Source: Methanobacteriota archaeon
GTDB taxonomy: Archaea; Thermoplasmatota; E2; DHVEG-1
Length of the DNA: 36,722 nucleotides
Direction of reading: 5' to 3'
Assembly (NCBI GenBank): GCA_026394435.1
Contig: JAPKYG010000119.1
Location: 1 to 36,722 of the forward strand
A program made the position numbers and the translations under genes. Below the pieces are notes generated by a model. That model searched no databases. It was given only the letters and a program-made list of their open reading frames with translations, and was not told the DNA's origin. Shown one piece after another: positions 1 to 36,637 of the stretch (positions within the stretch are counted from its first letter, which is position 1; every line of letters starts with the position of its first letter).

Positions 1-24
1 AAAAAGATTTTCGCGTATCCCTCT

Positions 25-411
25 CTACTTTAATTCAAGAACACCTTTCACAAAGTCGATGTGAAGATCGCAATCCCTCAGAAAACTCAATCCTATTAAA
101 CCATCAACACGGCTGGTCTCAGGAAGATCATGAACCATCACCTGGCAACGTCGCACCGTTCTTTTAACCACGGTCATGGACTCAACAGTTATCAATGGAG
201 TATGAATCTGACCGTTTGCAGTGTTCACTGCAACAAGCGTTTTAGAGAATGCAGGTGTGTACCCGAGCTCTTCAGCGACATGCCACGGAATCATACAATA
301 GGTCGCACCAGTATCAAGCACCATTTTCAATCGGCGTTTCACGCTCCCATGGGTAACAGTCACGAAAAGAACGATACCAAAGTCCTGGGGATTGAACGGT
401 ATTTTTACCAT
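25..411 (-). CDS. Retropepsin-like (clan AA) aspartic protease, single-domain
   Basis: The translated ORF contains the catalytic motif LDTGAT (D-T-G-A). Its C-terminal GLIGLSFL...IDF resembles bacterial/archaeal retropepsin-like Asp_protease_2 proteins. The track start at 438 is a TTG. The in-frame ATG at 411-409 (MVKIPFNPQ...) overlaps the stop of the upstream gene by 7 nt, as in an operon. Confidence 0.75.
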   Translation of the reverse strand: MVKIPFNPQDFGIVLFVTVTHGSVKRRLKMVLDTGATYCMIPWHVAEELGYTPAFSKTLVAVNTANGQIHTPLITVESMTVVKRTVRRCQVMVHDLPETSRVDGLIGLSFLRDCDLHIDFVKGVLELK

Positions 412-662
412 CGTCTCATGATCCCAGCGGAGAAACAAAACGCATATCCTTTCTTTGGAATTTTCCCGGAATAAAAGAGAGCAAGGTCTGCTTTCAGTTT
501 CTTTGATTTTTTAACAACATTCTCTTTCACGGGATTATGTTCGAGGAGGTTCCCCTCAACAGGATTGCCATACCTATCCTCTTTTGTCACCTCGACAAGG
601 AGCCATTCCTCAGAATATCGTTTTTCTAAATCCTTTATGCGTTCTGCCATATTTTTCTCCAT
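405..662 (-). CDS. Small hypothetical protein, partner of the retropepsin-like protease (DUF5678-like by recollection, unverified)
   Basis: 85-aa ORF with an ATG start (an alternative ATG is at 650). It is translationally coupled to the protease gene. A TATA-like gtttaaatag lies on the minus strand at 690-681, about 24 nt upstream of the ATG. The pattern EEWLLVEV...G..VEG...H.....VVKKSKKLK...LFYSGKIP resembles small proteins I recall being paired with these proteases. Confidence 0.6.
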   Translation of the reverse strand: MEKNMAERIKDLEKRYSEEWLLVEVTKEDRYGNPVEGNLLEHNPVKENVVKKSKKLKADLALFYSGKIPKKGYAFCFSAGIMRRW

Positions 663-850
663 CTATCAAAGCTATTATCCCTATTTAAACAATACGATAT
701 GGTATTTCTGCGACAACGATTTGTTCCTTGTAATCAAATAATGTTTAACCTTTCAAATACTCGCAGGTTAAGAAAAACAGGTGCAATTATGCACATAAAA
801 ATCCTTTCATTTATACTCAATCTAGATCTTCCTTTTTACGCCCAATTTGA

Positions 851-1090
851 GAACCCGTCGATGATACTATGCGTAGTAATCAACCCCGCTCCCAACTCGG
901 AAACCTCGCAAATCCCAAAGTTGTCACCAAACAACCACCTCGTCGACCATGAAAACTACCACTTCATCAATCCAGAAAAATCAGGAGAAAAACATTTCCC
1001 ACCTTCGTCACCTTCGCATTTCCCAAGTTCGTCACCTGATTCTTTTCCTATATATGTCACCTGATGTTTCCCGAATTTATCATCTGATCG
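851..1090 (+). repeat. Intercassette repeat element, copy A (with four tandem ~24 nt sub-repeats at 993-1090)
   Basis: Shares GAACCCGTCGAT..ATGCGTAGTAAYCAAC, AAACCTCNCAAATCCCAAA, CTCGTCGAYCATSAAAAC and AAYCAGGAGAAAAA blocks with copy C (2914-3220). It also shares about 100 nt at roughly 90% identity with copy D (for example 993-1037 versus 4319-4363, 41/45 identical by hand alignment). Confidence 0.85.
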
Positions 1091-1211
1091 ACGTCCAAAA
1101 GACAAGACGCGACTGCTTTCCAAAACGGGGATCTCTAACGCTCTTATTTTATACCCTTATTGACGAGGTCAGTTATTTGTACAAAGTCGTAAACTTTATG
1201 TAGACAAGAAA

Positions 1212-1223
1212 CGTATAAAGTAT
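1212..1223 (+). promoter_or_regulatory. Putative archaeal TATA box for the PIN cassette (leaderless mRNA)
   Basis: cgtataaagtat is centred about 23 nt upstream of the ATG at 1240. There is no Shine-Dalgarno sequence in between. Confidence 0.35.
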
Positions 1224-1239
1224 TGTAGGAAGGCCATAT

Positions 1240-1713
1240 ATGGCAATAAAAACAAAAATCTATGTCGATACCTCAGTAATTGGTGGAATATTCGATAGCG
1301 AATTTGACACATGGTCAAAGATATTGTTTCAAGAATTTAAAAACGGACGGAAAATAGTTATTCTTTCAGATTTAACACTGAGAGAGATCGAAGACGCCCC
1401 GCACCATGTGAGAACAATACTTGAGGAAATACCAGATAAACATAAACAGTTCGTCATATTAAATGACGAAGCAAAAGAACTCGCCAGCCATTACCTTAAA
1501 GAGGGGGCGATAGCTAAAAAATATTTGATTGACGCGCAGCATATCGCAATCGCTACAGTATATCGCGTAGATGTCCTTGTTAGTTGGAATTTCAAACATA
1601 TCGTTAATTTGGAGAAAATTCGATTTTACAACTCTATTAATCTTAAATATGGATATCCAATGATAGAGATACGAAGCCCGCGGGAGGTGCTCCATGAAGA
1701 AGAAAGAGTTTGA
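1240..1713 (+). CDS. vapC: PIN-domain ribonuclease (VapC-like toxin)
   Basis: N-terminal IYVDTSVIGG carries the first acidic PIN residue. LREIED, IDAQHIAIAT and the C-terminal SWNFKHIV are spaced as expected for a PIN fold. 157 aa. Confidence 0.8.
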   Translation: MAIKTKIYVDTSVIGGIFDSEFDTWSKILFQEFKNGRKIVILSDLTLREIEDAPHHVRTILEEIPDKHKQFVILNDEAKELASHYLKEGAIAKKYLIDAQHIAIATVYRVDVLVSWNFKHIVNLEKIRFYNSINLKYGYPMIEIRSPREVLHEEERV

Positions 1714-1828
1714 TGCGGTTCTTATGATGCGGAGGATCCGGGAGAGTCTCAGTGCCACCTACACGAATCCCCGTGTTGAAGAAAAAGAACTAGAAGAAAT
1801 ACGGAAAAAATATGGCATTATCGTATAG
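1694..1828 (+). CDS. Mini-ORF (44 aa), possible cognate partner/antitoxin of the PIN protein
   Basis: This ORF is not in the ORF track because it is too short. The ATG at 1694 overlaps the PIN gene end by 20 nt. Hand translation gives MKKKEFDAVLMMRRIRESLSATYTNPRVEEKELEEIRKKYGIIV, with a stop at 1826-1828. It is a charged, helical-looking peptide in operon position. Confidence 0.45.
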   Translation: MKKKEFDAVLMMRRIRESLSATYTNPRVEEKELEEIRKKYGIIV

Positions 1829-1989
1829 TATCTAAGGCTATTTCAATGCGTTTCCCATCTGAAACAGTTTCACTGATAAGTATCCCCTGGGCAATATACT
1901 GATCTATCAACAACTGGAACGAAAAATCTCTCATCGCTCAGACCTTCTTTTCTTGTAGAACGACAACGAGAGCGTCACATCACACCATA

Positions 1990-2088
1990 GAACCCATCGA
2001 AATCCCACACACCCGACATTTCCCACAGTCGTCGCCTGCATCATTTCCCATATCCGTCATCTAACGTTCTTCCCAAAGTGGGTGTTTC
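1990..2088 (+). repeat. Intercassette repeat element, copy B (short variant)
   Basis: GAACCCATCGAAATCCCA joins the 5' and core blocks of the element. The tandem pair at 2017-2062 (CATTTCCCACAGTCGTCGCCTGCATCATTTCCCATATCCGTCATCT) matches 4400-4445 of copy D at about 83% by hand alignment. Confidence 0.8.
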
Positions 2089-2237
2089 AATTGTCTTCCT
2101 CTTTCAATCTGCGATCTTTTCCTATTGCATGACCATCGTTCGAATGCTGTGGTTTTATCGTTTAACAGAGCGGGTTTTTCCTCAGCAACACCCTCACAAG
2201 AGCAAAATTATTTAAACAACGACCATCCATACTTGTT

Positions 2238-2480
2238 GTGGTAAAAGATATGAGTGATTTAGAAATTAAGCTCCCAAAGATACTCGAAGGAGAAAAACCG
2301 AGACTTGAACAAAACATCAAGGATCTCGTAATATTTGAAGTGAAACGAAAGAAATTACTCGCGTTCATGGATGAGGTTATGAGAGGTACAAAACAACTTT
2401 CTGACCGCGACTTGGTCAAATTTGGCAGAGAACTCAAACAGGGTAGATTTAAGAAACTGAAGAAACAAGGGCTCGTCTAA
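2238..2480 (+). CDS. Small VapB-like antitoxin candidate (partner of the downstream PIN gene)
   Basis: 80-aa charged ORF ending 1 nt before the PIN start at 2482. A TATA-like ttatttaaac at 2208-2217 is centred about 25 nt upstream of the GTG at 2238. An alternative ATG is at 2250. Confidence 0.6.
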   Translation: MVKDMSDLEIKLPKILEGEKPRLEQNIKDLVIFEVKRKKLLAFMDEVMRGTKQLSDRDLVKFGRELKQGRFKKLKKQGLV

Positions 2481-2481
2481 A

Positions 2482-2891
2482 ATGAGAGTAGTCGTGAACA
2501 CCAACATCCTCTTTTCATTCTTCAATAAAAAATCCAAAGCCCGGGAATATGCTATACACTCCCTTCGTTAGAATTATATGCTCCGTCATTTGCGCTGGAC
2601 GAACTTGGAGAACATAAAGAAGAAATAATGGAAAAATTCTCCTTATCAACGATACAATTTTCTCTTATCATAAAGTTCTTACATACTGTTGTGAACTTTG
2701 TGAAAAACGAAGAATATGCATCGTTTCTTTCAGAAGCTAAAGAGGTATCACCGGATCCAGATGATATTGATTTCTTTGCGTTGTCATTCAAGCTCCATTG
2801 CATTCTTTGGTCGAATGATGTTGCTCTGAAGAAACAATCTCGCATAACAGTGGTTTCCACCAAAGAACTCGTTGAACAATATAGATGGTAA
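2482..2891 (+). pseudogene. vapC: PIN-domain toxin gene interrupted by a frameshift
   Basis: The ATG at 2482 gives MRVVVNTNILFSFFNKKSKAREYAIHSLR and then a TAG at 2569-2571. The -1 frame is open from 2529 and reads ...LELYAPSFALDELGEHKEEIMEKFSL...PDPDDIDFFALSFKLHCILWSNDVALKK... up to 2891. The two parts together make one normal PIN domain. The frames overlap in 2529-2568, which contains an A6 run (2527-2532) and a CCC run (2561-2563). Confidence 0.7.
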
Positions 2892-2892
2892 T

Positions 2893-2900
2893 TTTTTTTA
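2893..2900 (+). terminator. Oligo-T tract right after the PIN stop (archaeal-type terminator candidate)
   Basis: taa-ttttttttta: a run of eight T directly downstream of the stop at 2889-2891. Confidence 0.35.
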
Positions 2901-2913
2901 TACCCCACGTCGT

Positions 2914-3220
2914 GAACCCGTCGATAAAGATATGCGTAGTAACCAACAGCACCAGCACAGAGACCAACCAAATCAATAGAAAAACCAGGAAATTCACAAG
3001 TCGAAAACCTCACAAATCCCAAATCCGTTAACTGAAAATCGTCTCGTCGATCATCAAAACAATCACGGTAGTAACCAGTAAAAACCAGGAGAAAAATTGT
3101 TCTCATTTTCGGTGCTTTCCCGTTTCCCAAACCCGGTGCTTGATGTTTCCTCTGTTCATTCCTCGCTTCCTGAGGGAATTTCCCAAAGTCGTCACCTAAC
3201 CCCCCCTGTCCTCGTCACTT
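2914..3220 (+). repeat. Intercassette repeat element, copy C (expanded variant)
   Basis: Starts 23 nt after the PIN stop with GAACCCGTCGATAAAGATATGCGTAGTAACCAAC. It contains AAACCTCACAAATCCCAAAT (3005-3024), CGTCTCGTCGATCATCAAAAC (3039-3059) and AACCAGGAGAAAAA (3083-3096). It also has degenerate TTTCCC repeats at 3113-3176 and a clean core, AATTTCCCAAAGTCGTCACCT, at 3178-3198. Confidence 0.8.
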
Positions 3221-3467
3221 TTCAACTCTCATACATTATCACAAAATACCGTATTTATGATAATAAATTATCATAAAATTTTTCATGTGTGCTTCATCTG
3301 GGTTAAGCGCTCAAAATGTTTGGTGGCGAACTCTTGTATCGAAAAAAACAGAATCACCAGAACAATGATTTTAACATTCTAAAAACGAGACAAAACGAAG
3401 CATTCCTGTCACGAGTATGACTGGTCGTAGACTCACCCTCCGTCAATTTCTTATACTCGTTCTTGTA

Positions 3468-3479
3468 TTAATTTAAATA
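3468..3479 (+). promoter_or_regulatory. Putative TATA box of the MNT/HEPN operon
   Basis: ttaatttaaata is centred about 25 nt upstream of the ATG at 3500. It overlaps the upstream ATG at 3479, which argues for 3500 as the real, leaderless start. Confidence 0.4.
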
Positions 3480-3499
3480 TGCTCACCTCTGAAGCCATC

Positions 3500-3781
3500 A
3501 TGAAAACCCTAAATCAGCACCGTACAGAAATTCAACAATATGGAGTGAGACGAATCGGTTTATTTGGTTCATTCAGGACAAACAATCAACACCAAAAAAG
3601 TGATATCGACATCCTCGTTGAATTTAAAAGAGGAAAAAAAACATTTGACAACTATATGGAATTAAAATTTTTCTTAGAACGATCATTTCGTCGTCCTGTG
3701 GATCTCGTAGTTAAAGAAGCAGTAAAACTTGAATTAAAGCCCTCAATTTTAAAGAGTGTACGCTATGCCACGGGATTTTAA
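3500..3781 (+). CDS. mntA: MNT-type minimal nucleotidyltransferase (MntA-like antitoxin)
   Basis: GLFGSFRTN...SDIDILVEF matches the GS...DxD signature of the minimal nucleotidyltransferase fold. The track ORF begins at the ATG at 3479. I prefer 3500 because of the TATA position. Confidence 0.85.
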   Translation: MKTLNQHRTEIQQYGVRRIGLFGSFRTNNQHQKSDIDILVEFKRGKKTFDNYMELKFFLERSFRRPVDLVVKEAVKLELKPSILKSVRYATGF

Positions 3782-4109
3782 AGTATTTCTCAAAGATATC
3801 CTTCAGGCCATTGAAAGGATCGAAGAGTACACCAAGGATCTATCGTTTGAGGATTTTTATAAAAACCAGTTAGTTCAAGATGGTGTGGTACGAAATCTTG
3901 AAATCATTGGCGAAGCAGTCAAACACCTACCAAAAGATGTACAAAAGAAGCACCCTCACGTAGAATGGAAAAAAATTGCAGGCTTACGCGATATTTTAAT
4001 TCATGCGTATTTTGGAATTGATCATGATATCATATGGGATGTTGTAACGAACAAGATTCCTGAGTTAAAAGAACAGGTTTTACGGATTCTTTCAAAAAGG
4101 AAAAAATGA
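3765..4109 (+). CDS. hepT: HEPN-domain (DUF86/HepT-like) toxin
   Basis: RNLEIIGEAVKHLP contains the Rx4-6H HEPN motif. The size and the overlap with the MNT gene are typical of the MNT-HEPN pair. The ATG at 3765 (MPRDFKVFLKDI...) is preferred over the track GTG at 3756. Confidence 0.85.
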   Translation: MPRDFKVFLKDILQAIERIEEYTKDLSFEDFYKNQLVQDGVVRNLEIIGEAVKHLPKDVQKKHPHVEWKKIAGLRDILIHAYFGIDHDIIWDVVTNKIPELKEQVLRILSKRKK

Positions 4110-4227
4110 TACTGTCCTTATTTAGTAAATTAAACCTCTCAGAAAAAAGAAAAAAAATACACTATTCGCACGCAACACCGCGTTCAACGAAAGAATACAC
4201 ACACCATCACTAATCAAAAATCATACA

Positions 4228-4496
4228 AAACCCGCTAATTCCCAAAGTCGTCACCAAAAAAACCCTCAATGACCAGTAAAACCACAACCTCAGCAATCCA
4301 GAAAAACCAGGAGAAAAACATTTCCCACCTTCGTCGTCTAAGCATTTCCCAAGTTCGTCACCTAAAAACAGGTTCGTTGATATTCTGTCCTGGAGAGCGG
4401 ATTTCCCAAAGTCGTCGCCTGCGTCATTTCCCATATTTGGCACCTACCAGTTCCAATACTCAGCCCCCAACATTTTCCACTAGAGATGTCACCTCA
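4228..4496 (+). repeat. Intercassette repeat element, copy D (with at least 5 tandem core motifs)
   Basis: AAACCCGCTAATTCCCAAAGTCGTCACCA is followed by AATCCAGAAAAACCAGGAGAAAAA. Core motifs lie at 4319-4339, 4343-4363, 4400-4420 and 4425-4445, with a degenerate one at about 4472-4496. Confidence 0.85.
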
Positions 4497-4948
4497 ACAC
4501 GACAAGCAATGCAGACGAAAAAACAGAAAAACAATCTCAGAAAACAAGGATTCTTCATCTATGACTTAGAGGACTGGAAGTACAATAGAGAAACACCAAC
4601 ACAAAATTTAAAAAAAATGAGAATGAACTTTGATGAAAAAAAGAAGAAACGGCTACACGTCGTTCTCCCAACGTTAGGGCTGATCCCGATACGTATCAGA
4701 CATTTCTTTAATCTTCAGGAGGTGTCCATCCTTTGAAATTTTCACGACTACAACCATAAGTATTCTCCGTTACAGAAAACGTTTTTTTTTGGCATGATAC
4801 CAATACGTCGGTCATGAACCTATCAAACGCTTCCCTAATCATTATACCATACCATTCCCCCTTGGTCTCATTCAAACTCAACACCACTCAACGAAAGAAA
4901 ACACCCTTTCCATTACTTAACCTTTTTTCCAAAATGTGACCAAAACAG

Positions 4949-4956
4949 TTATATTT
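4949..4956 (+). promoter_or_regulatory. Putative TATA box of the abiE operon
   Basis: ttatattt is centred about 25 nt upstream of the ATG at 4978, with no SD sequence (leaderless pattern). Confidence 0.4.
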
Positions 4957-4977
4957 GTGAAAAAACATTAAGTAACT

Positions 4978-5775
4978 ATGTTCACATCAATGTCGAGCTT
5001 GGAGCAGCAACTCTATTTTACCCTTGGCGGAAAAAACCAGCGAGTATTCACCCTACAAGATATTATCGATATCCTGAATATTTCTCCACAGCATGCCCGT
5101 AATCTTGCATCAAAAATGATTAAAAAACAAGTAGCTGAACGAGTAAAACCAGGCCTTTTCGTCCGTATACCCGAATCAATAATTTTAGACAAACAACTCT
5201 ATAAAGAAGATGCAGTACTCATAGCAGCAAAATCGTTTGATAAAGCATTTCTTTCACACTATACCGCTCTTTCGTTCTATGGACTTGCAGAACGATATAC
5301 AACTCAAATATACGTGACTATACCACAACACCAACGCAACATCCTCTATCACGAGATCACCATCAAATTCATTCATGTGATACCTCACAGATTTTTTGGT
5401 ATAACAACAATGGAGTATTCCAATGAAAAGATTCCTATATCTGATCAAGAACGGACTATTCTTGACATCGTTAATAAACCAAAATATGCGGGAGGTTGGA
5501 CTGAAAGCATCACCTGCCTCCAAAATCTTGAACAGATAAACTGGAATAATCTTCTCTCACATATCAAAAGATTTGAGAACAAGGTACTCGCCCGTCGTAT
5601 CGGATATATCCTGGATAATCTGGAAAACATTTCATTTCCGGAAAAAATAAAAAACGAGATCAAAAAATACAGCGGAAACAATATTTACTATTTCGATTCA
5701 ACACGAAAAGGAGTCCTGAAACAAGAGTGGAACATCGTAGTGCCAAGAACAATAACAGAGGCGTTTCATGCTTAA
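4978..5775 (+). CDS. abiEi: AbiEi-family antitoxin/transcriptional regulator (type IV TA)
   Basis: The N-terminal wHTH-like segment is FTLQDIIDILNISPQHARNLASKMIKKQVAERVKPGLF. A roughly 170-aa C-terminal domain follows. The gene overlaps the downstream DUF1814 nucleotidyltransferase gene by 8 nt, which is the canonical AbiEi-AbiEii arrangement. Confidence 0.8.
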   Translation: MFTSMSSLEQQLYFTLGGKNQRVFTLQDIIDILNISPQHARNLASKMIKKQVAERVKPGLFVRIPESIILDKQLYKEDAVLIAAKSFDKAFLSHYTALSFYGLAERYTTQIYVTIPQHQRNILYHEITIKFIHVIPHRFFGITTMEYSNEKIPISDQERTILDIVNKPKYAGGWTESITCLQNLEQINWNNLLSHIKRFENKVLARRIGYILDNLENISFPEKIKNEIKKYSGNNIYYFDSTRKGVLKQEWNIVVPRTITEAFHA

Positions 5776-6730
5776 CAGAAGAGATTTCGAGAAAATACAA
5801 CAAAAAACCGGTTTCAACCTTGATCTCTTAGAAAAAACATATCACCTCACTCGGGTCCTTAACGAGATGGAAAAGATCGAAGCTCTCTCAAAAAATCTCA
5901 CTCTGAAAGGCGGAACTGCACTCAATTTCCTCCATCTCGACATCCCCAGACTCTCCATCGATATCGACCTAAACTTTACTGGGTCTACTGAACACGAAGA
6001 CATGAAGACAACACGTCCCATCATTACACAATTGATACAAACTCTGGGTGGAAAGCTTGGGTATGACATAAAAGAAAAAGATTCATCATACATCATCTCA
6101 CGACACAACCTTCAATATACGACACTTAGAAACACAAAGGATCACATAAAGATCAAAATAAACTATCTCGATCGCATTCCGATTGACAAGATCAGAACAA
6201 AAAAGTTCCCATCGGTTTTTACAGATATCCCCCTATTCTCAGTACCGACATATTCGTTAGAGGAACTTACTGCACAAAAAATAAAAGCGTGTATAGAACG
6301 AACAGCACCAAGAGATATCTTCGATGTATCTTGCCTCTCACAACAAAACATCGCTATGACAAAGACAAGAAAATATACAGCGGTGTATTATTGTTTAATT
6401 GAAAAAGACAGAACAACAGATGTCGTAGAAAGAATAGAAGACTATGATCTAGAAAAAATACATCAAGAACTCAGACAATTTATACGAGGCAATGAACAGT
6501 TTGATGCAGAAAAAATACGAAAAAGTGCAACAGATTTCCTTAAGCAGATGTTATCATTTACAGTAAAAGAACAAAAATTTATTGATACGTTTCACAAAGA
6601 ACAAAAAATCGTTCCTGAACTGCTGTTCAAAGATAAACCTATACTTGCACATCATCCAGCTCTCATATATCAGCTGGAATTACTCAAAAAGGAACAAACC
6701 AGCGCACGAGAGAAGAAAAAAACTCTATGA
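5768..6730 (+). CDS. abiEii: AbiEii/AbiGii-family nucleotidyltransferase toxin (DUF1814)
   Basis: LKGGTALNFLH...RLSIDIDLNF matches the GGTAL / S.DLD nucleotidyltransferase signature of the family. 320 aa. Confidence 0.85.
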   Translation: MLNRRDFEKIQQKTGFNLDLLEKTYHLTRVLNEMEKIEALSKNLTLKGGTALNFLHLDIPRLSIDIDLNFTGSTEHEDMKTTRPIITQLIQTLGGKLGYDIKEKDSSYIISRHNLQYTTLRNTKDHIKIKINYLDRIPIDKIRTKKFPSVFTDIPLFSVPTYSLEELTAQKIKACIERTAPRDIFDVSCLSQQNIAMTKTRKYTAVYYCLIEKDRTTDVVERIEDYDLEKIHQELRQFIRGNEQFDAEKIRKSATDFLKQMLSFTVKEQKFIDTFHKEQKIVPELLFKDKPILAHHPALIYQLELLKKEQTSAREKKKTL

Positions 6731-6826
6731 GATAAGGAATTACTAAAAATTTTGTGAAAATTGAACGGAAACTTTTTCATATAAAGATGGATTAACGAAA
6801 GTGAATCATAGACGAGGGAGTGATAA

Positions 6827-7138
6827 ATGACCATTAAAGAAGGATATCTCTCAGATGATGGAACAGAAATTGACCAAACAACAGTACCCACACCCACCTT
6901 ATGCCTCTCCTGTCTGAAGAATAACGACGCCACAGAAGAAGTATCCTGCATGATAAACCGCATGGACCAGATGAAGGAGACAAAATCTGGAGAAAGGTTC
7001 CTTTGTTTCGCCTATGAACCAAATGACCCTTCGATAAACAAAAAAAAGGTACTTCAGGATATGGACAAGTGTTGGATGGAACAGAACCGAAAATACCTGG
7101 CGCAAAAAAAGAAAAGAATCGTAACAAAAAAACAATAA
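6827..7138 (+). CDS. Cys-rich small protein of unknown function
   Basis: A good SD sequence, GGGAGTGAT (6815-6823), lies 3 nt upstream of the ATG. A TATA-like tcatataaag is at 6777-6786. Cys pattern CLSC...C...FLCFAY, with a Lys-rich tail. I recall similar GYL.dDG.EI...P.P.LC..C...R.DQ...F.CFAYEP proteins but cannot name the family. Confidence 0.6.
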   Translation: MTIKEGYLSDDGTEIDQTTVPTPTLCLSCLKNNDATEEVSCMINRMDQMKETKSGERFLCFAYEPNDPSINKKKVLQDMDKCWMEQNRKYLAQKKKRIVTKKQ

Positions 7139-7234
7139 CTCCTGTATTAAAAAAAACAGAATCACCGGAAAAAGGATGTTAAACGGACGTGCAGAATAAG
7201 AACATATATCTTAGAGAAAAATCAGATTATACCA

Positions 7235-8485
7235 TCATATGAAATAATGCGGGACACAGCCAACTTTTGTATTTTCTATTTGTTTTACACAAAATTCTTT
7301 TTCTGTGAAAACTAACGCTCGTTTTGGCTTGTATGATTTAAGAAAACTATGAAAGCTTTTCCCTGGTTTTTTCTGACTTTTCACTTCTATAGGTACTACG
7401 CGTCTATCAACGTGTAAAATAAAATCAACTTCAGCTTTTCCTGTTGTACGCCAGTAATTGATTTTTCCCTCGAAGTTCTTTGCCAGTTCATTAAAAATAA
7501 AATTTTCTAGTATGATTCCTTTATCCATTCTGCTATCCAAAGGCAGAAAATTGTTGAGGATGGAATTTCTCAAACCAAGATCATTGAAATAGATTTTTCT
7601 TGCCTTTTTTAACTCCGTTGTCAAATTTTTATAATATGGTGAAAGAAGAGAAATGATAGACGTATTTGATAAAATCAATAAGTAATTTTCAATTGTTTTA
7701 AAATCCATATGCATCTCACTCATAATTGAGGAGATTTCAAGTAAGGAACCATTATTAAAACTGAGATAATTAAGTACATTTTTGAATTTTTCAAGATGCA
7801 TGATATTGAAAAAAAAGAACACGTCTTTTTCAAGATAGGTTCTGGTAAGATTTTTAAGTAATTCCATTTTTACTGCAGTATCTTCTTCTTTTACAATAGC
7901 AGGATATCCTCCAAAGAGGAGATATTCCTGCAGCAGGGATTTGAGTTCTTGTTGAAAAACAGGCTCAGTTTCAATTGTTTCTTCTTTTTCCATGAGAAAG
8001 TCTTGTACTGATTTTTTATAATCTATGAAGACCTTGTGGAGATCCTTTGCCCTCCATAGTAAAAATTCCTCGAAGTCAAGCGGTGGGAGTTCAAAGTACA
8101 CTGCTCTTCCCACGAGGTGTTTGCCGATTTCAACTTTTATATCAAAGGATCCGGAGCCAGTGACAAAGAGTTTTATTTTATCAGAAAACATATCGTAAAT
8201 AAGTTTTATGTTTTTCCCAGCATTCTTGCTGTATTGTGCTTCATCAATAAAAAGAAGGGATTTTTTGTTTTCAACATATCTTTTTACAAACTCTTTGGGA
8301 TTTTTTTCAAATCCTTGGAGCATTTCCTCGTCTTCAAGTGTTACGTAGTGCCCCCCGAGTTTCTCGTTTAGATGTAAAAATACTGTTGTTTTTCCGCTTT
8401 GTCTTGGTCCTTTTATGAGTATGGTTTCTTTTCTTTTTACCCATTTTTCTAGGTTTTCGTCTATTTTTCTGGGATAGTACTCCAT
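7235..8485 (-). CDS. AAA+ ATPase of the AAA_14/DUF4143 (COG1373) type
   Basis: Walker A is GPRQSGKTT and Walker B is LLFIDEAQ. The C-terminal region ends in a restriction-endonuclease-like ...GKAEVDFIL...PIEVKS segment typical of the family. 416 aa. Confidence 0.85.
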   Translation of the reverse strand: MEYYPRKIDENLEKWVKRKETILIKGPRQSGKTTVFLHLNEKLGGHYVTLEDEEMLQGFEKNPKEFVKRYVENKKSLLFIDEAQYSKNAGKNIKLIYDMFSDKIKLFVTGSGSFDIKVEIGKHLVGRAVYFELPPLDFEEFLLWRAKDLHKVFIDYKKSVQDFLMEKEETIETEPVFQQELKSLLQEYLLFGGYPAIVKEEDTAVKMELLKNLTRTYLEKDVFFFFNIMHLEKFKNVLNYLSFNNGSLLEISSIMSEMHMDFKTIENYLLILSNTSIISLLSPYYKNLTTELKKARKIYFNDLGLRNSILNNFLPLDSRMDKGIILENFIFNELAKNFEGKINYWRTTGKAEVDFILHVDRRVVPIEVKSQKKPGKSFHSFLKSYKPKRALVFTEKEFCVKQIENTKVGCVPHYFI

Positions 8486-8890
8486 GAATAATAGAATTAT
8501 CTATGGAGTTAATAACCTTTTCTCACCTAGGGTTAAAAAAATATCTCCTCATTTGAACGTAACACTGAAAATGTTTAGATGGGCTTGGTAGAAACCAATC
8601 CGGAATCAGGGATAGGAGAAAAAAAGGATTTTAATTCATTAAAAAAATTAGAAGTAACAGCTACTCGTCTTCATCCCAACGATACGACTGATCCCGATAT
8701 TTATCAGACACTTCTTTAATCCTTATGAGAGTTCCTTTTTTTGAGATTTTCACGAATTCAACCATCGTATCACCTGTTCAGGTAAGAGAACCTCTTCGCC
8801 ATGACACCATGAGGGGTTCATTACTGTTGAAACGCTTTCTTACCATATTGTAGTTGCTTTGCCAGTATTTAAATTTTTTCAAAAAAATAA

Positions 8891-9361: not shown

Positions 9362-9582
9362 GGGATCCCCACCGGTGAATACCCTAAATATTATATAAAT
9401 TTCTTGTAAAAATACCTGTTTTTCTCCCCAAAGGACTCACATATTTTTATAAAAAATAAATATAAAAATAACCGAACAGAGCAGATACGAACTGTACAGA
9501 CCCTGGATAACAGTTGTACAACAGGAGCTTAATAAGCGAACAAACAAAACAAGAGAACAATAAGAAAAAGGACGGAGATACC

Positions 9583-11472
9583 ATGTCAAAAAATATATTC
9601 TTTGAAAGAAATAAGAATCGGTTCGTAAAAAAACCGGCTCTCTATGTAACCGCAGTCATCCTCATAGCAATATGTTTCGCACCGCTTGCGAGCTCCTGTG
9701 TACCACAACCGGGAATACAGCTCATCAAAACAGGTCCAACCTACGGCTATGTAGGAGAGGACATAACCTACACCTATAGCGTCAGCAACACAGAAAACAT
9801 GCCGCTCAGCGATGTTACAGTCACGGACGATTCCTGCGGACCGGTGAACTACGTCTGCGGTGATAAGAACCAAAACGGAAAACTAGACAATTCAGAGACC
9901 TGGCTCTTCACCTGCACCTACCCACCGAGTTTCACGTTCCCTGACCCCTTGACCAACACAGCAACCGCGTCCGGGACCTGGGGCGACCAGACTGCACAAG
10001 ACACAGACCCTTACACCCTGTACCCGTTCATCCTCCGCAAAAATGTTCTTCTCTACTGGGAAGGCGAGAATATTGACTACACAGACCCAGACACTCAATT
10101 CACCATGAGAATGTCACAAGGGGAAGAAAACCTTGACACGTTTCTCGTTAACGAATCTACCCCCGTCTATCTCTGGCTCAGCCAAGGAACCTACCACTTC
10201 ACTGAAGTAGACGTTCCCCAAGGATACATCTCCGCCTATGAAACCATCACGTTTTCCACCGGAGAAACCTACCCAGATTTCTCCCAGCTGAACATCATCA
10301 CCTTTGATCTCAGCATTGAAAAAACCGGGTTAGAGACCTGCTACCCCGACGATCAAATAACTTATAACTACACCGTCCGAAACAAGGGACCCGCAAGCGT
10401 CATCCCTGCCCTCCTGGATGACCTATGCGGTACTCCCGTCTATACCAGCGGAGACATCGATTCCGATGGACTGATTGATCCTTCTGAAACCTGGACCTAT
10501 GACGCAACCTATACCGTCAATACTGAACCAGGGAGCATCATCATAAACACCGTCACCGTCACTGACGCAGAAGGAGCGAACCGAGCTGCTGAACAATGGT
10601 GGCTCGGCGGAGACGTCAACCTCAGCAATAATGCCGCGAACTGGTCGGTCGCCGTCATTCCACAGCCCGAAGAACCGGAGGAGCCACAAGAACCCGAAGA
10701 GCCAGAAGAACCAGAGCAACCAGACGAACCAGAGGAACCAACAGAACCTGAAGAACCACAAGAACCAGAACAACCAGAAGAACCTCTACAACCCGCAACC
10801 ACCCGCTCACACTCCTACCACTATGGTGATATCGCACCCGTCGCGGATGCATCCGGCCCCTACAACGCCATGTACAACGAGGAAATCATATTCAACGGTT
10901 CACACAGCTACGACCCAGACGGAATCATCATACACTACGGCTGGTCATTCGGAGACGGAGAAACCACCAACGGTGAAAAAGTAACACATACCTATGCTGA
11001 CGCAGGGATATATCAAGTAATATTAACGGTCGTTGATAATCTCGGAGTCTCAGATACCGACGTGACGAATGCCAGCATCGTGATACCGAATAGACCGCCA
11101 GCAACTCCACTGATAGCAGGCCCAGTGAACGGAACGACAAACACAGAATACTCCTATGTATTCGGATCTACAGATACAGACAACGACGACATCACCTACA
11201 TCATCAACTGGGGCGACGGATCAACCTTCGAGACTGGATTCCTATCCAATGGGCAGTATTTCTCCCTGATTCACCGCTGGGATTCAAAAGGAGAGTATAC
11301 CATAACAGTGACTGCGTCAGATGGCGAATTCACAACATCATCTGAACTGGTAGTCACGATTCATGAGACGCTCATCGCAGACAACATCGCAATCATCGCC
11401 TTAGGCCTCTTAGCCCTAATCGTGTTGATAGCAATTCTGCTCTATTCCAAAACAAAAAAGAAAAATAAATAA
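9583..11472 (+). CDS. Cell-surface protein: signal anchor, two DUF11-like repeat domains, Pro/Glu-rich linker, two PKD domains, C-terminal TM anchor
   Basis: The ATG at 9583 is preceded by GGAGA, whereas the track start at 9514 is a TTG. DUF11-like segments: GEDITYTYSVSNTENMPLSDVTVTDD and DDQITYNYTVRNKG. PKD signatures: WSFGDGETT..HTY...GIYQVILTVVD and INWGDGST...GEYTITVTASDG. The C-terminus is IAIIALGLLALIVLIAILLY followed by KTKKKNK. Confidence 0.85.
   Translation: MSKNIFFERNKNRFVKKPALYVTAVILIAICFAPLASSCVPQPGIQLIKTGPTYGYVGEDITYTYSVSNTENMPLSDVTVTDDSCGPVNYVCGDKNQNGKLDNSETWLFTCTYPPSFTFPDPLTNTATASGTWGDQTAQDTDPYTLYPFILRKNVLLYWEGENIDYTDPDTQFTMRMSQGEENLDTFLVNESTPVYLWLSQGTYHFTEVDVPQGYISAYETITFSTGETYPDFSQLNIITFDLSIEKTGLETCYPDDQITYNYTVRNKGPASVIPALLDDLCGTPVYTSGDIDSDGLIDPSETWTYDATYTVNTEPGSIIINTVTVTDAEGANRAAEQWWLGGDVNLSNNAANWSVAVIPQPEEPEEPQEPEEPEEPEQPDEPEEPTEPEEPQEPEQPEEPLQPATTRSHSYHYGDIAPVADASGPYNAMYNEEIIFNGSHSYDPDGIIIHYGWSFGDGETTNGEKVTHTYADAGIYQVILTVVDNLGVSDTDVTNASIVIPNRPPATPLIAGPVNGTTNTEYSYVFGSTDTDNDDITYIINWGDGSTFETGFLSNGQYFSLIHRWDSKGEYTITVTASDGEFTTSSELVVTIHETLIADNIAIIALGLLALIVLIAILLYSKTKKKNK
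10666..10791 (+). repeat. Coding tandem repeat, 9-nt period (14 x Pro-Glu-Glu-like tripeptides)
   Basis: CCN-GAR-GAR-type units encode PEEPEEPQEPEEPEEPEQPDEPEEPTEPEEPQEPEQPEEP. They generate spurious ORFs in other frames and on the opposite strand. Confidence 0.9.
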
Positions 11473-15838: not shown

Positions 15839-16142
15839 TTATACTTAAGAACCGCTCCATATTTATATGTTTTGAAACAAAGCTTTGATTGTTTATTGAG
15901 TCTCTTCATTTGAAAGCTAGGGAGAAAATCAGATATACAAAATGGTAAAAAAATAATATTTCTCTGTTTAAATGAGAAAATTATATATACTGATTATCTA
16001 TAAATAATAAATGGATAGGAAAATTGCCGAAAAATATACTATTCCATCTTAAGCAATACAAATATAATAATTGAATGAAGAAATATCTTTAAAGTAGTAA
16101 ATAGAGTAAAAGTTGAGACGTAAAGACCATCAAAGCGATAAT

Positions 16143-17087
16143 ATGACAAAGAATATAAAAAACATAGGAATATTTTTCATAATGCTCCTAATTTTATTTA
16201 CATCTTTTACAACAATTGTTAACGGTAAAAATAATTTAAATAATGATAATTTTCAAAATGTTGAAAAAATAACTAACAATACACTTTTCCAACCAACAGA
16301 AAACATAAATCTAAAACAAGATATATCAGAAATAAATGATATTACAAAAAATTATTGGGCAGTGCTAATAGGGTTAAATGATTACCCTGGTTATGCAAAT
16401 GATTTACCATATAGTATAAATGAAATAACAAGCTTCCAAAAAACCTTGCTTAATACGAGAAACTGGAAACAATCAAATATTAAAATAATAACGGATAATA
16501 ATGCTACAAATGCATCTTTTATTAATGCGATAAAATGGCTTGATGAAAACGAGGATTCAAATGATCTATCTATTTTTTACTTTGCAGGTCATGGATCACG
16601 TAATTCTAATGGTCATGAATATATAAAATTATATGATGCACAAATAACAGATGAAGAATTAGATAAACAATTAGACAATCTTGAAGGAAAAGTAATCGTT
16701 ATCCTTGACAGCTGCAAGAGCGGAGGATTTATTGAAGAATTACACCAAAATAAAAGAGTAATATTAACAGCTTGTAGCAAAGATGAATTAGCATATCAGG
16801 ATCATAACTTACAAAGTGGTATTTTTGGTTATTTTTTAAATATAACTCTTGATAAACTTGCAAAATCCGCTGAGATGGCATTTTTATTTACGTATCCCCT
16901 TTGTGTTTATTACAGTAAAAAAATAAGTGAACAGTATCATACTAACTTCACATTCCATCCTATTAAAGATGATAGTAATATTGGTTTATCAAAAATCATT
17001 ACTTGGCGTAAATTCTTACCTATTTCATCAGGATTTTTAACATACTTTAAGATTAAATCTAGTGAATCAAAAATTTGGATTCTCTAA
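16143..17087 (+). CDS. Caspase-fold (clan CD, C14/C13-like) cysteine peptidase with N-terminal signal anchor
   Basis: The His-Cys dyad context is FYFAGHGS and VIVILDSCKSGGF, preceded by YWAVLIGLNDYPG...NDLPYS. The N-terminal hydrophobic segment is IGIFFIMLLILFTSFTTIV. The ATG at 16143 is preferred over the track TTG at 16113. The gene is strikingly AT-rich. Confidence 0.8.
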   Translation: MTKNIKNIGIFFIMLLILFTSFTTIVNGKNNLNNDNFQNVEKITNNTLFQPTENINLKQDISEINDITKNYWAVLIGLNDYPGYANDLPYSINEITSFQKTLLNTRNWKQSNIKIITDNNATNASFINAIKWLDENEDSNDLSIFYFAGHGSRNSNGHEYIKLYDAQITDEELDKQLDNLEGKVIVILDSCKSGGFIEELHQNKRVILTACSKDELAYQDHNLQSGIFGYFLNITLDKLAKSAEMAFLFTYPLCVYYSKKISEQYHTNFTFHPIKDDSNIGLSKIITWRKFLPISSGFLTYFKIKSSESKIWIL

Positions 17088-17369
17088 GTCACAAAATTAA
17101 AAAATTCTAAGATTAAGACCTCGGTAGCTAACATTCCTCAGAACTCTTTCCCTTTTTCGCTACAGTGATATCCTCCATCTGGTTAATGTTTCTTCTGGCA
17201 AGAGCGTCAATTTTCCCGGGTTTTGTTTTATTCATATGTATCGACAGATTTCATGTGTCTACAATACGTAATAATCTCCTTTTGCAAAAATCCACCTCCC
17301 TATAACACCGCCAATAAACCTAAATAGCCAGCCGATATTACGAGCAAAACGCAGAGGAGCATCCCACGT

Positions 17370-35708: not shown

Positions 35709-35736
35709 TGTAATGTCAACCGACATCGCTAACGTT
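35709..35736. repeat. IS481-like left terminal inverted repeat
   Basis: See the mobile element entry. It overlaps the transposase stop codon region. Confidence 0.7.
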
Positions 35737-36637
35737 CATAATAGAATGATGCTGGTATTCCCTCAACACCAAGGGAATATCGTACATTGTTGAACCATTC
35801 TATGTATTCAGACAGAAGAAGTGAAACGTTTTCGAAAACCTTGTCAAGGACAAGATACTCTTCTTTGAGATTGCGAATAGCCCGTTCAACCTTTCCCTTG
35901 GTTTCTGGATAATATGGAGGTGCGGGTTCATATTTCACCTTGTTTGTCTTGCACCAGCGTTTGAGATCATTGCTTTTAAACTGGGATCCGTTGTCGCAGA
36001 GGAGACGTTTGGGACCTCCATATCTTTTCACTGCCCATTCCAAGGCAGTGACCACCTCTTCTTTCTTGATGGAGGTATAGAGTCCGCAGTAGATAATGAA
36101 CCGTGAATGGTCATCAATAATCACCAGTGCATACAACCGTTTTCCATCAAGGAGAAACGGTCCTTTGATGTCGATCTGCCAAAGGCCATTTGGTTTTCGT
36201 GCCCTGAAATATTTCCAATCCTTTTTGTTCCTCTGGTATGGAGAACCATTCCGTCTGTGTTTTTTCAGAATGATATTCACGGTTTGGCGACTAAGGTTCA
36301 CTGATTGCCAGTCACTGCCGGTAATCGTAGTAAGCAAATGGTGAATGTATCCCGGTGGACATCGAAGATTAAGAGATATCCTGTATGTACCCCAGTTGAA
36401 AGAATCACGGAGGACGATGATAGCATTTTCAATCTCTTGTGTTACCTTTGAGTATGTTTTCAATGGTCGTTGTGAACGGCTTCTGTAACTGTCTTTTCCA
36501 GGATGGTATGCTCGTTTCCTCCATTTCCATACCACCCATCGACTGACACCGAAGATAGCAGCGATGTCTTTGATTTTGTATCCTTTTTTGTAAGCTTTAA
36601 CAATACGTCTTCGTATTTCAGGTGTAAGTGATCCCAT
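35729..36637 (-). CDS. IS481-family DDE transposase (HTH plus rve integrase core)
   Basis: The N-terminal HTH is YKIKDIAAIFGVSRWVVWKW. The DDE core is WQIDIKGPF, VIIDDHSRF, LCDNGSQFKS and PYYPETKGKVERAIRNLKEE. Confidence 0.9.
   Translation of the reverse strand: MGSLTPEIRRRIVKAYKKGYKIKDIAAIFGVSRWVVWKWRKRAYHPGKDSYRSRSQRPLKTYSKVTQEIENAIIVLRDSFNWGTYRISLNLRCPPGYIHHLLTTITGSDWQSVNLSRQTVNIILKKHRRNGSPYQRNKKDWKYFRARKPNGLWQIDIKGPFLLDGKRLYALVIIDDHSRFIIYCGLYTSIKKEEVVTALEWAVKRYGGPKRLLCDNGSQFKSNDLKRWCKTNKVKYEPAPPYYPETKGKVERAIRNLKEEYLVLDKVFENVSLLLSEYIEWFNNVRYSLGVEGIPASFYYER

Follow-up and report, generated by a model that had tools for sequence, protein, structure and literature searches.

Introduction

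To our knowledge, integrons are the only well-understood platform for stockpiling and shuffling single-gene cassettes, and the chemistry on which they depend, in which the integrase IntI acts on a folded attC site, is thought to be unique. In the shufflons of IncI plasmids, inverted sfx sites serve to invert gene segments, and the recombinase Rci is encoded adjacent to them. In integrative mobile elements exploiting Xer (IMEX), Acinetobacter pdif modules and tycheposon or tRNA-fragment arrays, cargo, often toxin-antitoxin (TA) or defence genes, lies between repeated sites; in Xer modules and att accretion the recombinase is encoded elsewhere and the arrays are built by successive insertions. 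Sites of the dif type are 28 bp long, with a 6-bp spacer flanked on both sides by 11-bp arms in inverted orientation (PMC2958812), and integrons with canonical IntI and attC have been described in archaea (Ghaly et al. 2022, PMC9668308). Here we analyse a 36,722-nt stretch of DNA (hereafter the window; contig JAPKYG010000119.1 of assembly GCA_026394435.1, from a Methanobacteriota archaeon placed by GTDB in Thermoplasmatota, E2, DHVEG-1), the first 7 kb of which is filled with small self-contained modules, several of them separated by co-oriented copies of a non-coding element built from tandem direct 19-bp repeats (iterons). An earlier note on this DNA had likened the arrangement to an integron array and proposed that the repeats are cassette boundaries.

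The functionally closest known system is the sedentary integron or the cluster of attC sites lacking integron integrases (CALIN). As in these arrays, small, mostly TA or defence cassettes lie between co-oriented repeats (TA cassettes being enriched in both), cassettes are present or absent and reordered between relatives with junctions inside the repeat, and the 5' part of the iteron element is linked to the upstream cassette in the same way as attC. Discrete cassettes that differ between relatives, set apart by co-oriented sites, are thus found here too. However, IntI was not detected in the window or in the element-bearing loci, and the sites have neither an attC hairpin nor a RYYYAAC/GTTRRRY pair but consist of 19-bp iterons in tandem direct orientation; moreover, the cassettes are equipped with promoters of their own and carry genes in either orientation, and some elements stand alone. 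The locus is therefore integron-like in organisation and behaviour, but it is not an integron.

Other described repeats share part of this picture. Shufflon sfx sites are likewise asymmetric multi-copy sites of about 19 bp without dyad symmetry that rearrange intervening gene segments, whereas the sites considered here are all in direct orientation, cassettes are gained, lost and reordered, and no recombinase is encoded next to the sites. Xer/dif modules also have cargo bounded by repeated sites, but neither inverted arms nor tRNA fragments were found here. Repetitive extragenic palindromes and bacterial interspersed mosaic elements (REP/BIME), enterobacterial repetitive intergenic consensus (ERIC), Correia and BOX repeats are, like the iteron elements, lineage-specific, non-coding, intergenic, high-copy rearrangement hotspots; they are palindromic or end in inverted repeats and can be found in either orientation, whereas the iteron elements are unstructured, co-oriented and located in variable islands.

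Identification of four iteron elements in the window

Four repeats in the window, designated A to D from 5' to 3' (Table 1), are confirmed to be real, homologous and far beyond chance expectation. Their core, TTTCCCAAAGTCGTCACCT, occurs seven times with at most 3 mismatches, always on the + strand and always within 995-4420, when 0.02 occurrences are expected from shuffled sequences. Gapless repeat families were found at 901-1037 / 3005-3141 / 4227-4363 and at 841-884 / 2904-2947. BLAST identity is 84.8% between A and D over 138 nt, 71.7% between A and C over 138 nt and 94% between B and D over 36 nt. A hidden Markov model (HMM) built only from 55 copies outside the window matched the window at exactly four sites, all on the + strand, namely 4211-4483 (D, E 5e-73), 2998-3230 (C, 3e-42), 898-1037 together with 1016-1089 (A) and 2016-2097 (B, 1e-13), and gave no match in the remaining 4.5-36.7 kb. 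Motif counts, BLAST and this independent HMM agree with the four homologous, same-orientation spacers proposed in the earlier note, although its identity for A versus D (about 90% over some 100 nt) was slightly generous. Element B, previously regarded as a deletion variant, indeed aligns to HMM positions 202-281 only, which is the 3' iteron part of the model. Element C carries a 3' block (AACCCC..CTCGTCACTTTTCAACTCTCATACATTATCAC) that is common to many other copies.

Architecture of the iteron element

Gapless alignment of 60 canonical copies shows an element of about 300 bp, the iteron core of which is a 19-bp bipartite motif (TTTCCCA-N3-TCGTC-R-CCT) arranged head-to-tail at 23-25 nt. The element begins with a 5' block (...ATCGACCATGAAAAC...CAGGAGAAAAAC), followed by two iterons 24 nt apart, a spacer of ~38 nt (GGTTCGTTGAT...), its best-conserved stretch (ATTTCCCAAAGTCGTCGCCTGCATCATTTCCCA, the 33-bp I4-I5 sequence) and 1-3 further iterons, and it often ends in a 3' block (AACCCC..CTCGTCACTTTT..ATACATTATCAC). 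There are 1-8 iterons per element, whose variants appear in fixed order and whose periods are 23, 24 or 25 nt, or fixed distances of 57, 84 or 108 nt. Among 364 distinct iteron instances, conservation reaches 90% or more in TTTCCCA, TCGTC and CCT, whereas positions 8, 10 and 16 and the sequences between iterons differ, even within one element. The iteron is hence an asymmetric bipartite site with conserved halves about one helical turn apart. As for the boundaries, the 5' block moves together with the upstream cassette, whereas the sequence directly behind the final iteron is part of the downstream one.

The + strand of the element is C-rich and G-poor (31% C and 14% G). Folds of A and D as single-stranded DNA or RNA, on both strands, were no better than those of shuffled sequences (z of +2.0, +0.7, -1.2 and -0.1), the + strand of D being even less structured than its controls (z = +2.0), and no consensus fold emerged from 55 copies (-2.2 and -3.7 kcal/mol on the two strands). 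Searches of Rfam gave no match at gathering thresholds over the whole window and none in the elements at E<=1 (700-5000). A structured non-coding RNA was ruled out by the lack of both an Rfam match and a consensus structure.

Considering that one forward frame (frame 0), reading as 8-aa repeats (ISHLRHLR), is open in 53 of 72 copies, that multiple 19-22-bp sites in the same direction resemble the end architecture of Tn7 and Mu, and that DDE_5-family insertion sequences (ISs) stand beside elements in a few loci, the repeats might represent a repetitive protein-coding gene or else remnants or ends of transposable elements, such as a miniature inverted-repeat transposable element (MITE), an IS or a Tn7-like end. 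We regard such an origin as extremely improbable. The frame is interrupted by stops in 19 of the 72 copies, its ATG lacks conservation and the reading frame changes from one iteron to the next; the variability at the three codon positions (0.556/0.504/0.62) has no periodicity and tracks the DNA motif, and the element is therefore non-coding. With regard to MITE or IS ends, terminal inverted repeats are absent, no locus has a motif match on the opposite strand that could provide an oppositely oriented partner, and phage, plasmid and viral matches are lacking.

Gain, loss and reordering of cassettes at the iterons

Comparison of related loci shows that cassettes have been gained, lost and reordered between related genomes, with the crossover in the iteron zone. 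The window's own locus is represented by two further contigs (L092 and L093), which match window positions 1-1037 at 99.7% and 97.4% identity, respectively. Both are without the PIN cassette (1038-2017), a single canonical element joining the protease pair to the VapB-like cassette instead, and identity to the window drops to 91% beyond the iterons. In a contig of a metagenome-assembled genome (MAG; contig L010), the PIN, MNT/HepT, 103-aa and surface-protein genes of the window are found in a different order; the MNT/HepT cassette (97.6% identity) lies at a different place in the locus, and the VapB/PIN_2 cassette is replaced by another one, cassette X. Cassette X, which consists of two unannotated genes, has a different set of neighbours at each of 5 places. 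In every case its conserved block has an iteron directly before its start (...CCT followed by GATTGTTC; ...GTCGTCGCCT followed by GATTGTTCATATC), extends over the genes and the 5' block of the following element, which is specific to X, and ends inside the iterons of that element.

The same pattern was observed across the family when the sequences on the two sides of the iterons were classified. There are 47 types of 5' block and 49 types of sequence in the 120 nt behind the final iteron; these are joined in 85 combinations, in which 12 left and 17 right types have multiple partners. Multi-partner types number 3 and 5 at a control junction where the upstream cassette meets the 5' block, 6 and 4 at a control junction just after the element, and 0-4 at pseudo-junctions inside cassettes. 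Assembly chimeras were rejected as the source of this shuffling because the arrangements are replicated in independent contigs: 25 flank combinations recur in at least two of them, with multiple partners retained. The proposal that the repeats are boundaries in a variable array thus holds, since the element is tied to cassette boundaries rather than spread genome-wide without such a link, gene order in relatives differs at the repeats, and breakpoints fall inside the element. The array also runs past the 5' edge, as had been suspected: L092 contains a partial element ~75-130 nt beyond position 1, followed by a surface-protein gene, and the array hence continues upstream of the window.

Distribution, polarity and cargo of the family

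Further members were sought by a tandem-iteron pattern scan of 185,579 species genomes and of metagenome and viral collections, and by BLAST in plasmid and phage collections. The species genomes yielded five loci in two Thermoplasmata MAGs, plus one chance match in a Gemmatimonadetes genome, and the metagenomes yielded 76 contigs with tandem iterons, mostly from one series of sediment samples. After cleaning, 145 elements in 77 loci (0.51 Mb) were obtained, the loci being those of the two MAGs and of about 70 sediment metagenome contigs. In IMG/VR, the single motif gave 6 isolated chance matches and the tandem motif none, and no BLAST match was found in plasmid or phage collections, on the basis of which a viral or plasmid origin was rejected. 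A search within a library of papers found none describing the iteron motif or Thermoplasmata cassette arrays. We conclude that the repeat family is real, lineage-specific, undescribed, non-coding and strand-polar, and that it delimits exchangeable defence and TA cassettes in hypervariable regions of a Thermoplasmata clade from sediment.

The largest arrays comprise seven elements, and the median distance between neighbouring elements is 1.2 kb. Solitary elements were found at several places in the genome as well, and one MAG carries elements on at least three contigs. All of the adjacent element pairs (68/68) are co-oriented. This polarity does not extend to the genes. Relative to the element, upstream genes lie on the + strand in 36 cases and on the - strand in 36, and downstream genes in 26 and 46, respectively, which reveals no orientation preference. 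The co-orientation reported in the earlier note therefore stands for the elements, which are always on the + strand in the window, whereas that of the genes is a local coincidence.

These strand counts bear on the possibility that the element serves the cassettes as a common operator, upstream activating site or terminator and was copied along with them. The element is intergenic, its iterons resemble transcription-factor sites, and each window copy is located 150-480 nt upstream of a + strand cassette. Its orientation does not depend on that of the genes beside it, however, and it is therefore no promoter, operator or terminator; moreover, unrelated cassette families share the same element, and its left and right parts belong to different cassettes. 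A regulatory role of this kind is thus very unlikely, and a duplicated promoter or operator does not account for the repeats.

The direction of the elements may be related to that of replication. Cumulative GC skew falls monotonically over all 36.7 kb of the window, the + strand of which is C-rich. Among the 39 loci of at least 5 kb, the strand defined by the element has negative GC skew in the flanks of 33, including some that carry most of their genes on the opposite strand. These skews hint that element polarity is tied to replication direction. Such a link, the independence from gene orientation and the tandem arrangement of same-direction sites would all suit polar protein-binding arrays, acting either as roadblocks to replication forks or SMC or as silencer or boundary sites that insulate acquired defence genes, with recombination as a by-product of fork stalling. 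Nevertheless, the loci are not independent and six of them go the other way, and the elements are limited to variable islands (none in window positions 4.5-36.7 kb) instead of being spread along the chromosome, so that we consider this explanation unlikely.

The genes between elements are TA modules and candidate defence genes, some of which match PADLOC candidate families (PDC). By far the commonest cassette type consists of AAA_14/DUF4143 ATPases (PDC-S01), with 39 copies in the loci, in both orientations and often several per array. Other cargo between elements includes ATPase_2/DUF234 (PDC-S27), HEPN with a winged helix-turn-helix MNT protein (wHTH-MNT; PDC-M05), AbiE, MNT/HepT, PIN/VapB, RelE-like and Fic genes, and DpnI, Dam methylase, HNH and UvrD-like proteins are encoded nearby. 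Four loci (L015, L067, L041 and L017) representing different contexts have copies of DDE_5-family ISs close to elements, at distances of a few hundred nt at most. One such IS is inserted ~100 nt after the iterons and disrupts a HEPN cassette. These ISs may have an insertion preference for the neighbourhood of the element.

Search for a recombinase and for known types of sites

Candidate enzymes were searched for by Pfam in open reading frames (ORFs) of the cassette region of the window and in ~70 neighbouring proteins, and by catalytic-motif regular expressions in 301 proteins of at least 150 aa. These searches yielded only DDE_5 and rve transposases, a PD-(D/E)XK protein, HNH, DpnI, Dam and similar proteins. 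Consistent with what had been noticed before, Pfam detected no recombinase among the cassette-region ORFs of the window.

The sites themselves were compared with known types. The motif GTTRRRY occurs 56 times in the window, compared with 76 expected, and never on the + strand inside A-D; RYYYAAC was found only as single ACCTAAC and ATCTAAC sequences at the ends of two iterons, with no partner. No inverted repeat of at least 9 nt within 40 nt is conserved across the four window copies. The lack of a hairpin, of inverted repeats and of a GTTRRRY/RYYYAAC pair rules out attC, in accordance with the earlier observation of direct instead of inverted repeats, and together with the lack of IntI among the proteins searched it means that no molecular hallmark of an integron was found, although an intI gene might lie elsewhere in the genome, far from the arrays. 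Xer/dif-type sites were excluded on the same absence of conserved inverted repeats and on the asymmetry of the iteron. Neither tRNA nor tmRNA att sites were found. The loci are also not arrays of clustered regularly interspaced short palindromic repeats (CRISPR), as the iterons abut at 23-25 nt or at the fixed longer distances without unique spacers and there is no match to CRISPR repeats in Rfam.

Tandem direct iterons are reminiscent of replication origins and plasmids. Like the iterons of RepA-type plasmids and parC-type centromeres, the sites described here are asymmetric, 19-22 bp long and arranged head-to-tail at ~22-25 bp, and, as in plasmid iterons, the bipartite motif suits a monomer with two DNA-binding lobes. 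The difference is that up to 7 elements are present per locus, at cassette junctions, and that no rep or par gene was detected by Pfam among the ~70 neighbouring proteins; multiple copies per locus argue against an origin.

Possible mechanisms of cassette exchange

The explanation that we tentatively prefer, although we would rate it somewhat below an even chance, is that a protein factor encoded in trans mediates recombination at the iterons. Because the bipartite motif is conserved position-specifically among paralogous iterons, the iterons are probably binding sites for a sequence-specific protein, which would be encoded elsewhere in the genome; two half-sites about one helical turn apart are what one would expect of a monomer that always binds in the same direction. 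Such a protein might act on double-stranded DNA to recombine elements that are direct repeats of each other, by which a cassette would be excised as a circle together with one hybrid element and could then be re-inserted at any other element. Excision and re-insertion between direct repeats would automatically keep all elements co-oriented, and the array would work like that of an integron or CALIN with different sites.

Several observations weigh against this proposal. No IntI or other site-specific recombinase was detected in the window or in the 0.51 Mb of element-bearing loci, and the iteron has no dyad symmetry, which the core sites of classical tyrosine and serine recombinases possess. 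Circular cassettes were searched for, and neither circular cassette contigs nor any contigs with terminal overlaps were found. The loci derive from related populations and are not independent samples. Some rearrangements end outside any element (L012 versus L057; window position 1828 versus L010), and the crossovers defined by gapless extension can be placed only within about one iteron. Moreover, iterons are the most identical stretches between copies, and RadA-dependent homologous recombination would therefore also concentrate crossovers there.

The last point leads to the possibility that the elements are passive dispersed repeats with some other primary role, or none, between which (as copies of ~100-300 bp) ordinary homologous recombination or gene conversion takes place. 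Co-orientation would then be maintained because an exchange between copies in opposite orientation would lead to chromosomal inversions. The coincidence of breakpoints with the longest near-identical stretch (~33 nt), the absence of a recombinase from the vicinity and the breakpoints outside elements are all compatible with this possibility, and the range of 1-8 iterons is what unequal crossing-over would give. On the other hand, position-specific conservation of both motif halves from one paralogous iteron to another points to a binding site under selection and not to mere homology, the equally long 5' blocks, although 70-85% identical, seldom host crossovers, and the lack of any inverted copy among 145 elements from different genomic contexts is beyond expectation from selection against inversions alone. 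We consider passive recombination doubtful, but far from negligible.

A stronger version of recombination by a trans-encoded protein is that the family constitutes a hitherto unknown cassette-capture system in Archaea, with polar 19-bp iterons instead of hairpins or dyad-symmetric cores as sites, a trans-encoded enzyme and arrays oriented to replication. The candidate enzyme could be, for example, an asymmetric-site recombinase or a replication-coupled strand-specific nickase that excises and inserts defence cassettes. This full scheme is speculative, and we deem it possible but rather unlikely.

Cassettes, adjoining modules and other features of the window

The window is archaeal, with genes for ribosomal proteins, RPA-like proteins, purine biosynthesis and transketolase, and its nearest public relative is 'Thermoplasmata archaeon Bin3_14.8m' (JADBLO01), with 85-98% identity over shared segments. 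Coordinates of the elements, the cassettes and other repeats are listed in Table 1.

Table 1. Iteron elements, cassettes and other features in the first part of the window
Feature	Position	Strand	Description	Basis
Upstream cassette	25..662	-	retropepsin-like aspartyl protease 25-438 and 85-aa ORF 405-662	Pfam
Element A	851..1085	+	far-5' block 851-884; canonical part from ~898; iteron-like I1 911-929 in 5' block
Element A, iterons	995-1013, 1019-1037	+	degenerate 1043-1062, 1067-1085	motif and HMM
Cassette 1	1086..1989	+	PIN-like, 157 aa (1240-1713) and 44-aa ORF (1694-1828); own TATA-like box	Pfam, PIN weak (E 0.009)
Element B	1990..2090	+	truncated; short 5' remnant; iterons 2019-2037, 2044-2062; degenerate 2070-2090
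Cassette 2	2091..2913	+	80-aa VapB-like ORF (2238-2480) and frameshifted PIN_2 pseudogene (2483-2891)	Pfam
Candidate small hydrophobic peptide gene	2903..2997	-	GTG..NFLVFLLIWLVSVLVLLVTTHIFIDGFTT; underlies the GAACCCGTCGAT..ATGCGTAGTAAYCAAC block	sequence reading
Element C	2998..3250	+	with far-5' block from 2914; diverged 5' block and iterons; perfect iteron 3179-3197
Cassette 3	3251..4210	+	MNT nucleotidyltransferase (3479-3781) and HepT/HEPN RNase (3756-4109)	Pfam NTP_transf_2 and HepT
Further repeat pair	3329-3374 / 7137-7182		85% identity
Element D	4211..4496	+	most complete (canonical); I1 4238-4256; 5' block ends in CCAGGAGAAAAAC
Element D, iterons	4321-4339, 4345-4363, 4402-4420, 4427-4445	+	38-nt spacer between second and third; degenerate to 4494
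Cassette 4	4497..7182	+	AbiEi (4978-5775), AbiEii (5768-6730) and 103-aa Cys-rich ORF (6827-7138)	Pfam (AbiEi and AbiEii)
Second repeat class	4636..4757	+	versus 8642-8765, 79% identity; opens with GATGAAAAAAAGAAGAAACG module
AAA_14/DUF4143 ATPase	7235..8485	-	PADLOC candidate defence family PDC-S01 (E 4e-87)	Pfam/PADLOC

Pfam agrees with the cassette contents read earlier from the translations (PIN with a mini-ORF, VapB-like with PIN, MNT with HEPN, and AbiEi/AbiEii), except that the second PIN is a pseudogene. Relative to intact homologues, this PIN_2 gene has a 2-nt insertion that causes a frameshift and an in-frame stop at ~2570; an independent Logan contig (L001) bears the identical lesion and stop, and the gene is therefore a real pseudogene and not a sequencing error. 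A pair similar to that of the upstream cassette (a small ORF and an aspartyl-protease-like ORF) lies in the opposite orientation between two elements in L014. Another element comes after the cassette 4 block in other loci, whereas none does in the window. The 103-aa Cys-rich protein of this cassette, which has a basic tail and no Pfam or PADLOC match, might be DNA-binding. Nine homologues, always on the strand of the element, were found in the loci; four of the nine are directly upstream of an element, and several others are beside conserved non-cassette genes.

The GAACCCGTCGAT-N5-ATGCGTAGTAA block (at 851 and 2914), which had been taken as part of the element, turned out to be a separate module outside the canonical element, present upstream of ~15% of elements. 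Judging from its minus-strand translation, a peptide of ~32 aa (V-[NK]-[FY]-LVFLLIWLV..VTTHI.IDGFTT), this module could encode a small membrane protein or a type-I-toxin-like gene beside some elements. A degenerate copy of the peptide ORF is located at 836-934 on the - strand, 22 copies were found in the loci, and one copy has an in-frame 6-nt indel. The two intergenic repeat pairs that begin at 4636 and 3329 are unrelated to the iteron element. The GATGAAAAAAAGAAGAAACG module nevertheless follows directly after iterons in other loci, and in L010 the repeat bearing it occurs twice, flanking a rearranged block.

Additional observations concern the remainder of the window and the array borders. 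Homologues of the large surface protein (ORF 9514-11472), which has a Pro/Glu-rich linker (PEEPEEPQEPEEP...) at 10700-10800, and those of pilin-like genes, often form the left border of arrays. A sharp GC trough at 16000-17100 (26% versus ~43%) covers an ORF for a secreted protein of 324 aa, in the translation of which caspase/legumain-like His and Cys motifs can be read, and this region is probably a separate horizontal acquisition. At the far end, the translation of a 302-aa ORF (35729-36637, - strand) resembles an integrase-core (rve-type) IS transposase; no iteron HMM match lies near this IS, which is unrelated to the iteron element.

Implications

The arrays produce the same genome-level outcome as integrons with an entirely different site architecture and in an uncultivated archaeal host. 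If a dedicated protein acts on the iterons, cassette capture would have been solved independently for a second time, through recombination sites of a new type, and the family would explain the diversification of archaeal defence islands. Even under homologous recombination, it provides a concrete and testable repeat family that structures a defence island, and the iteron motif lets such islands be found in metagenomes.

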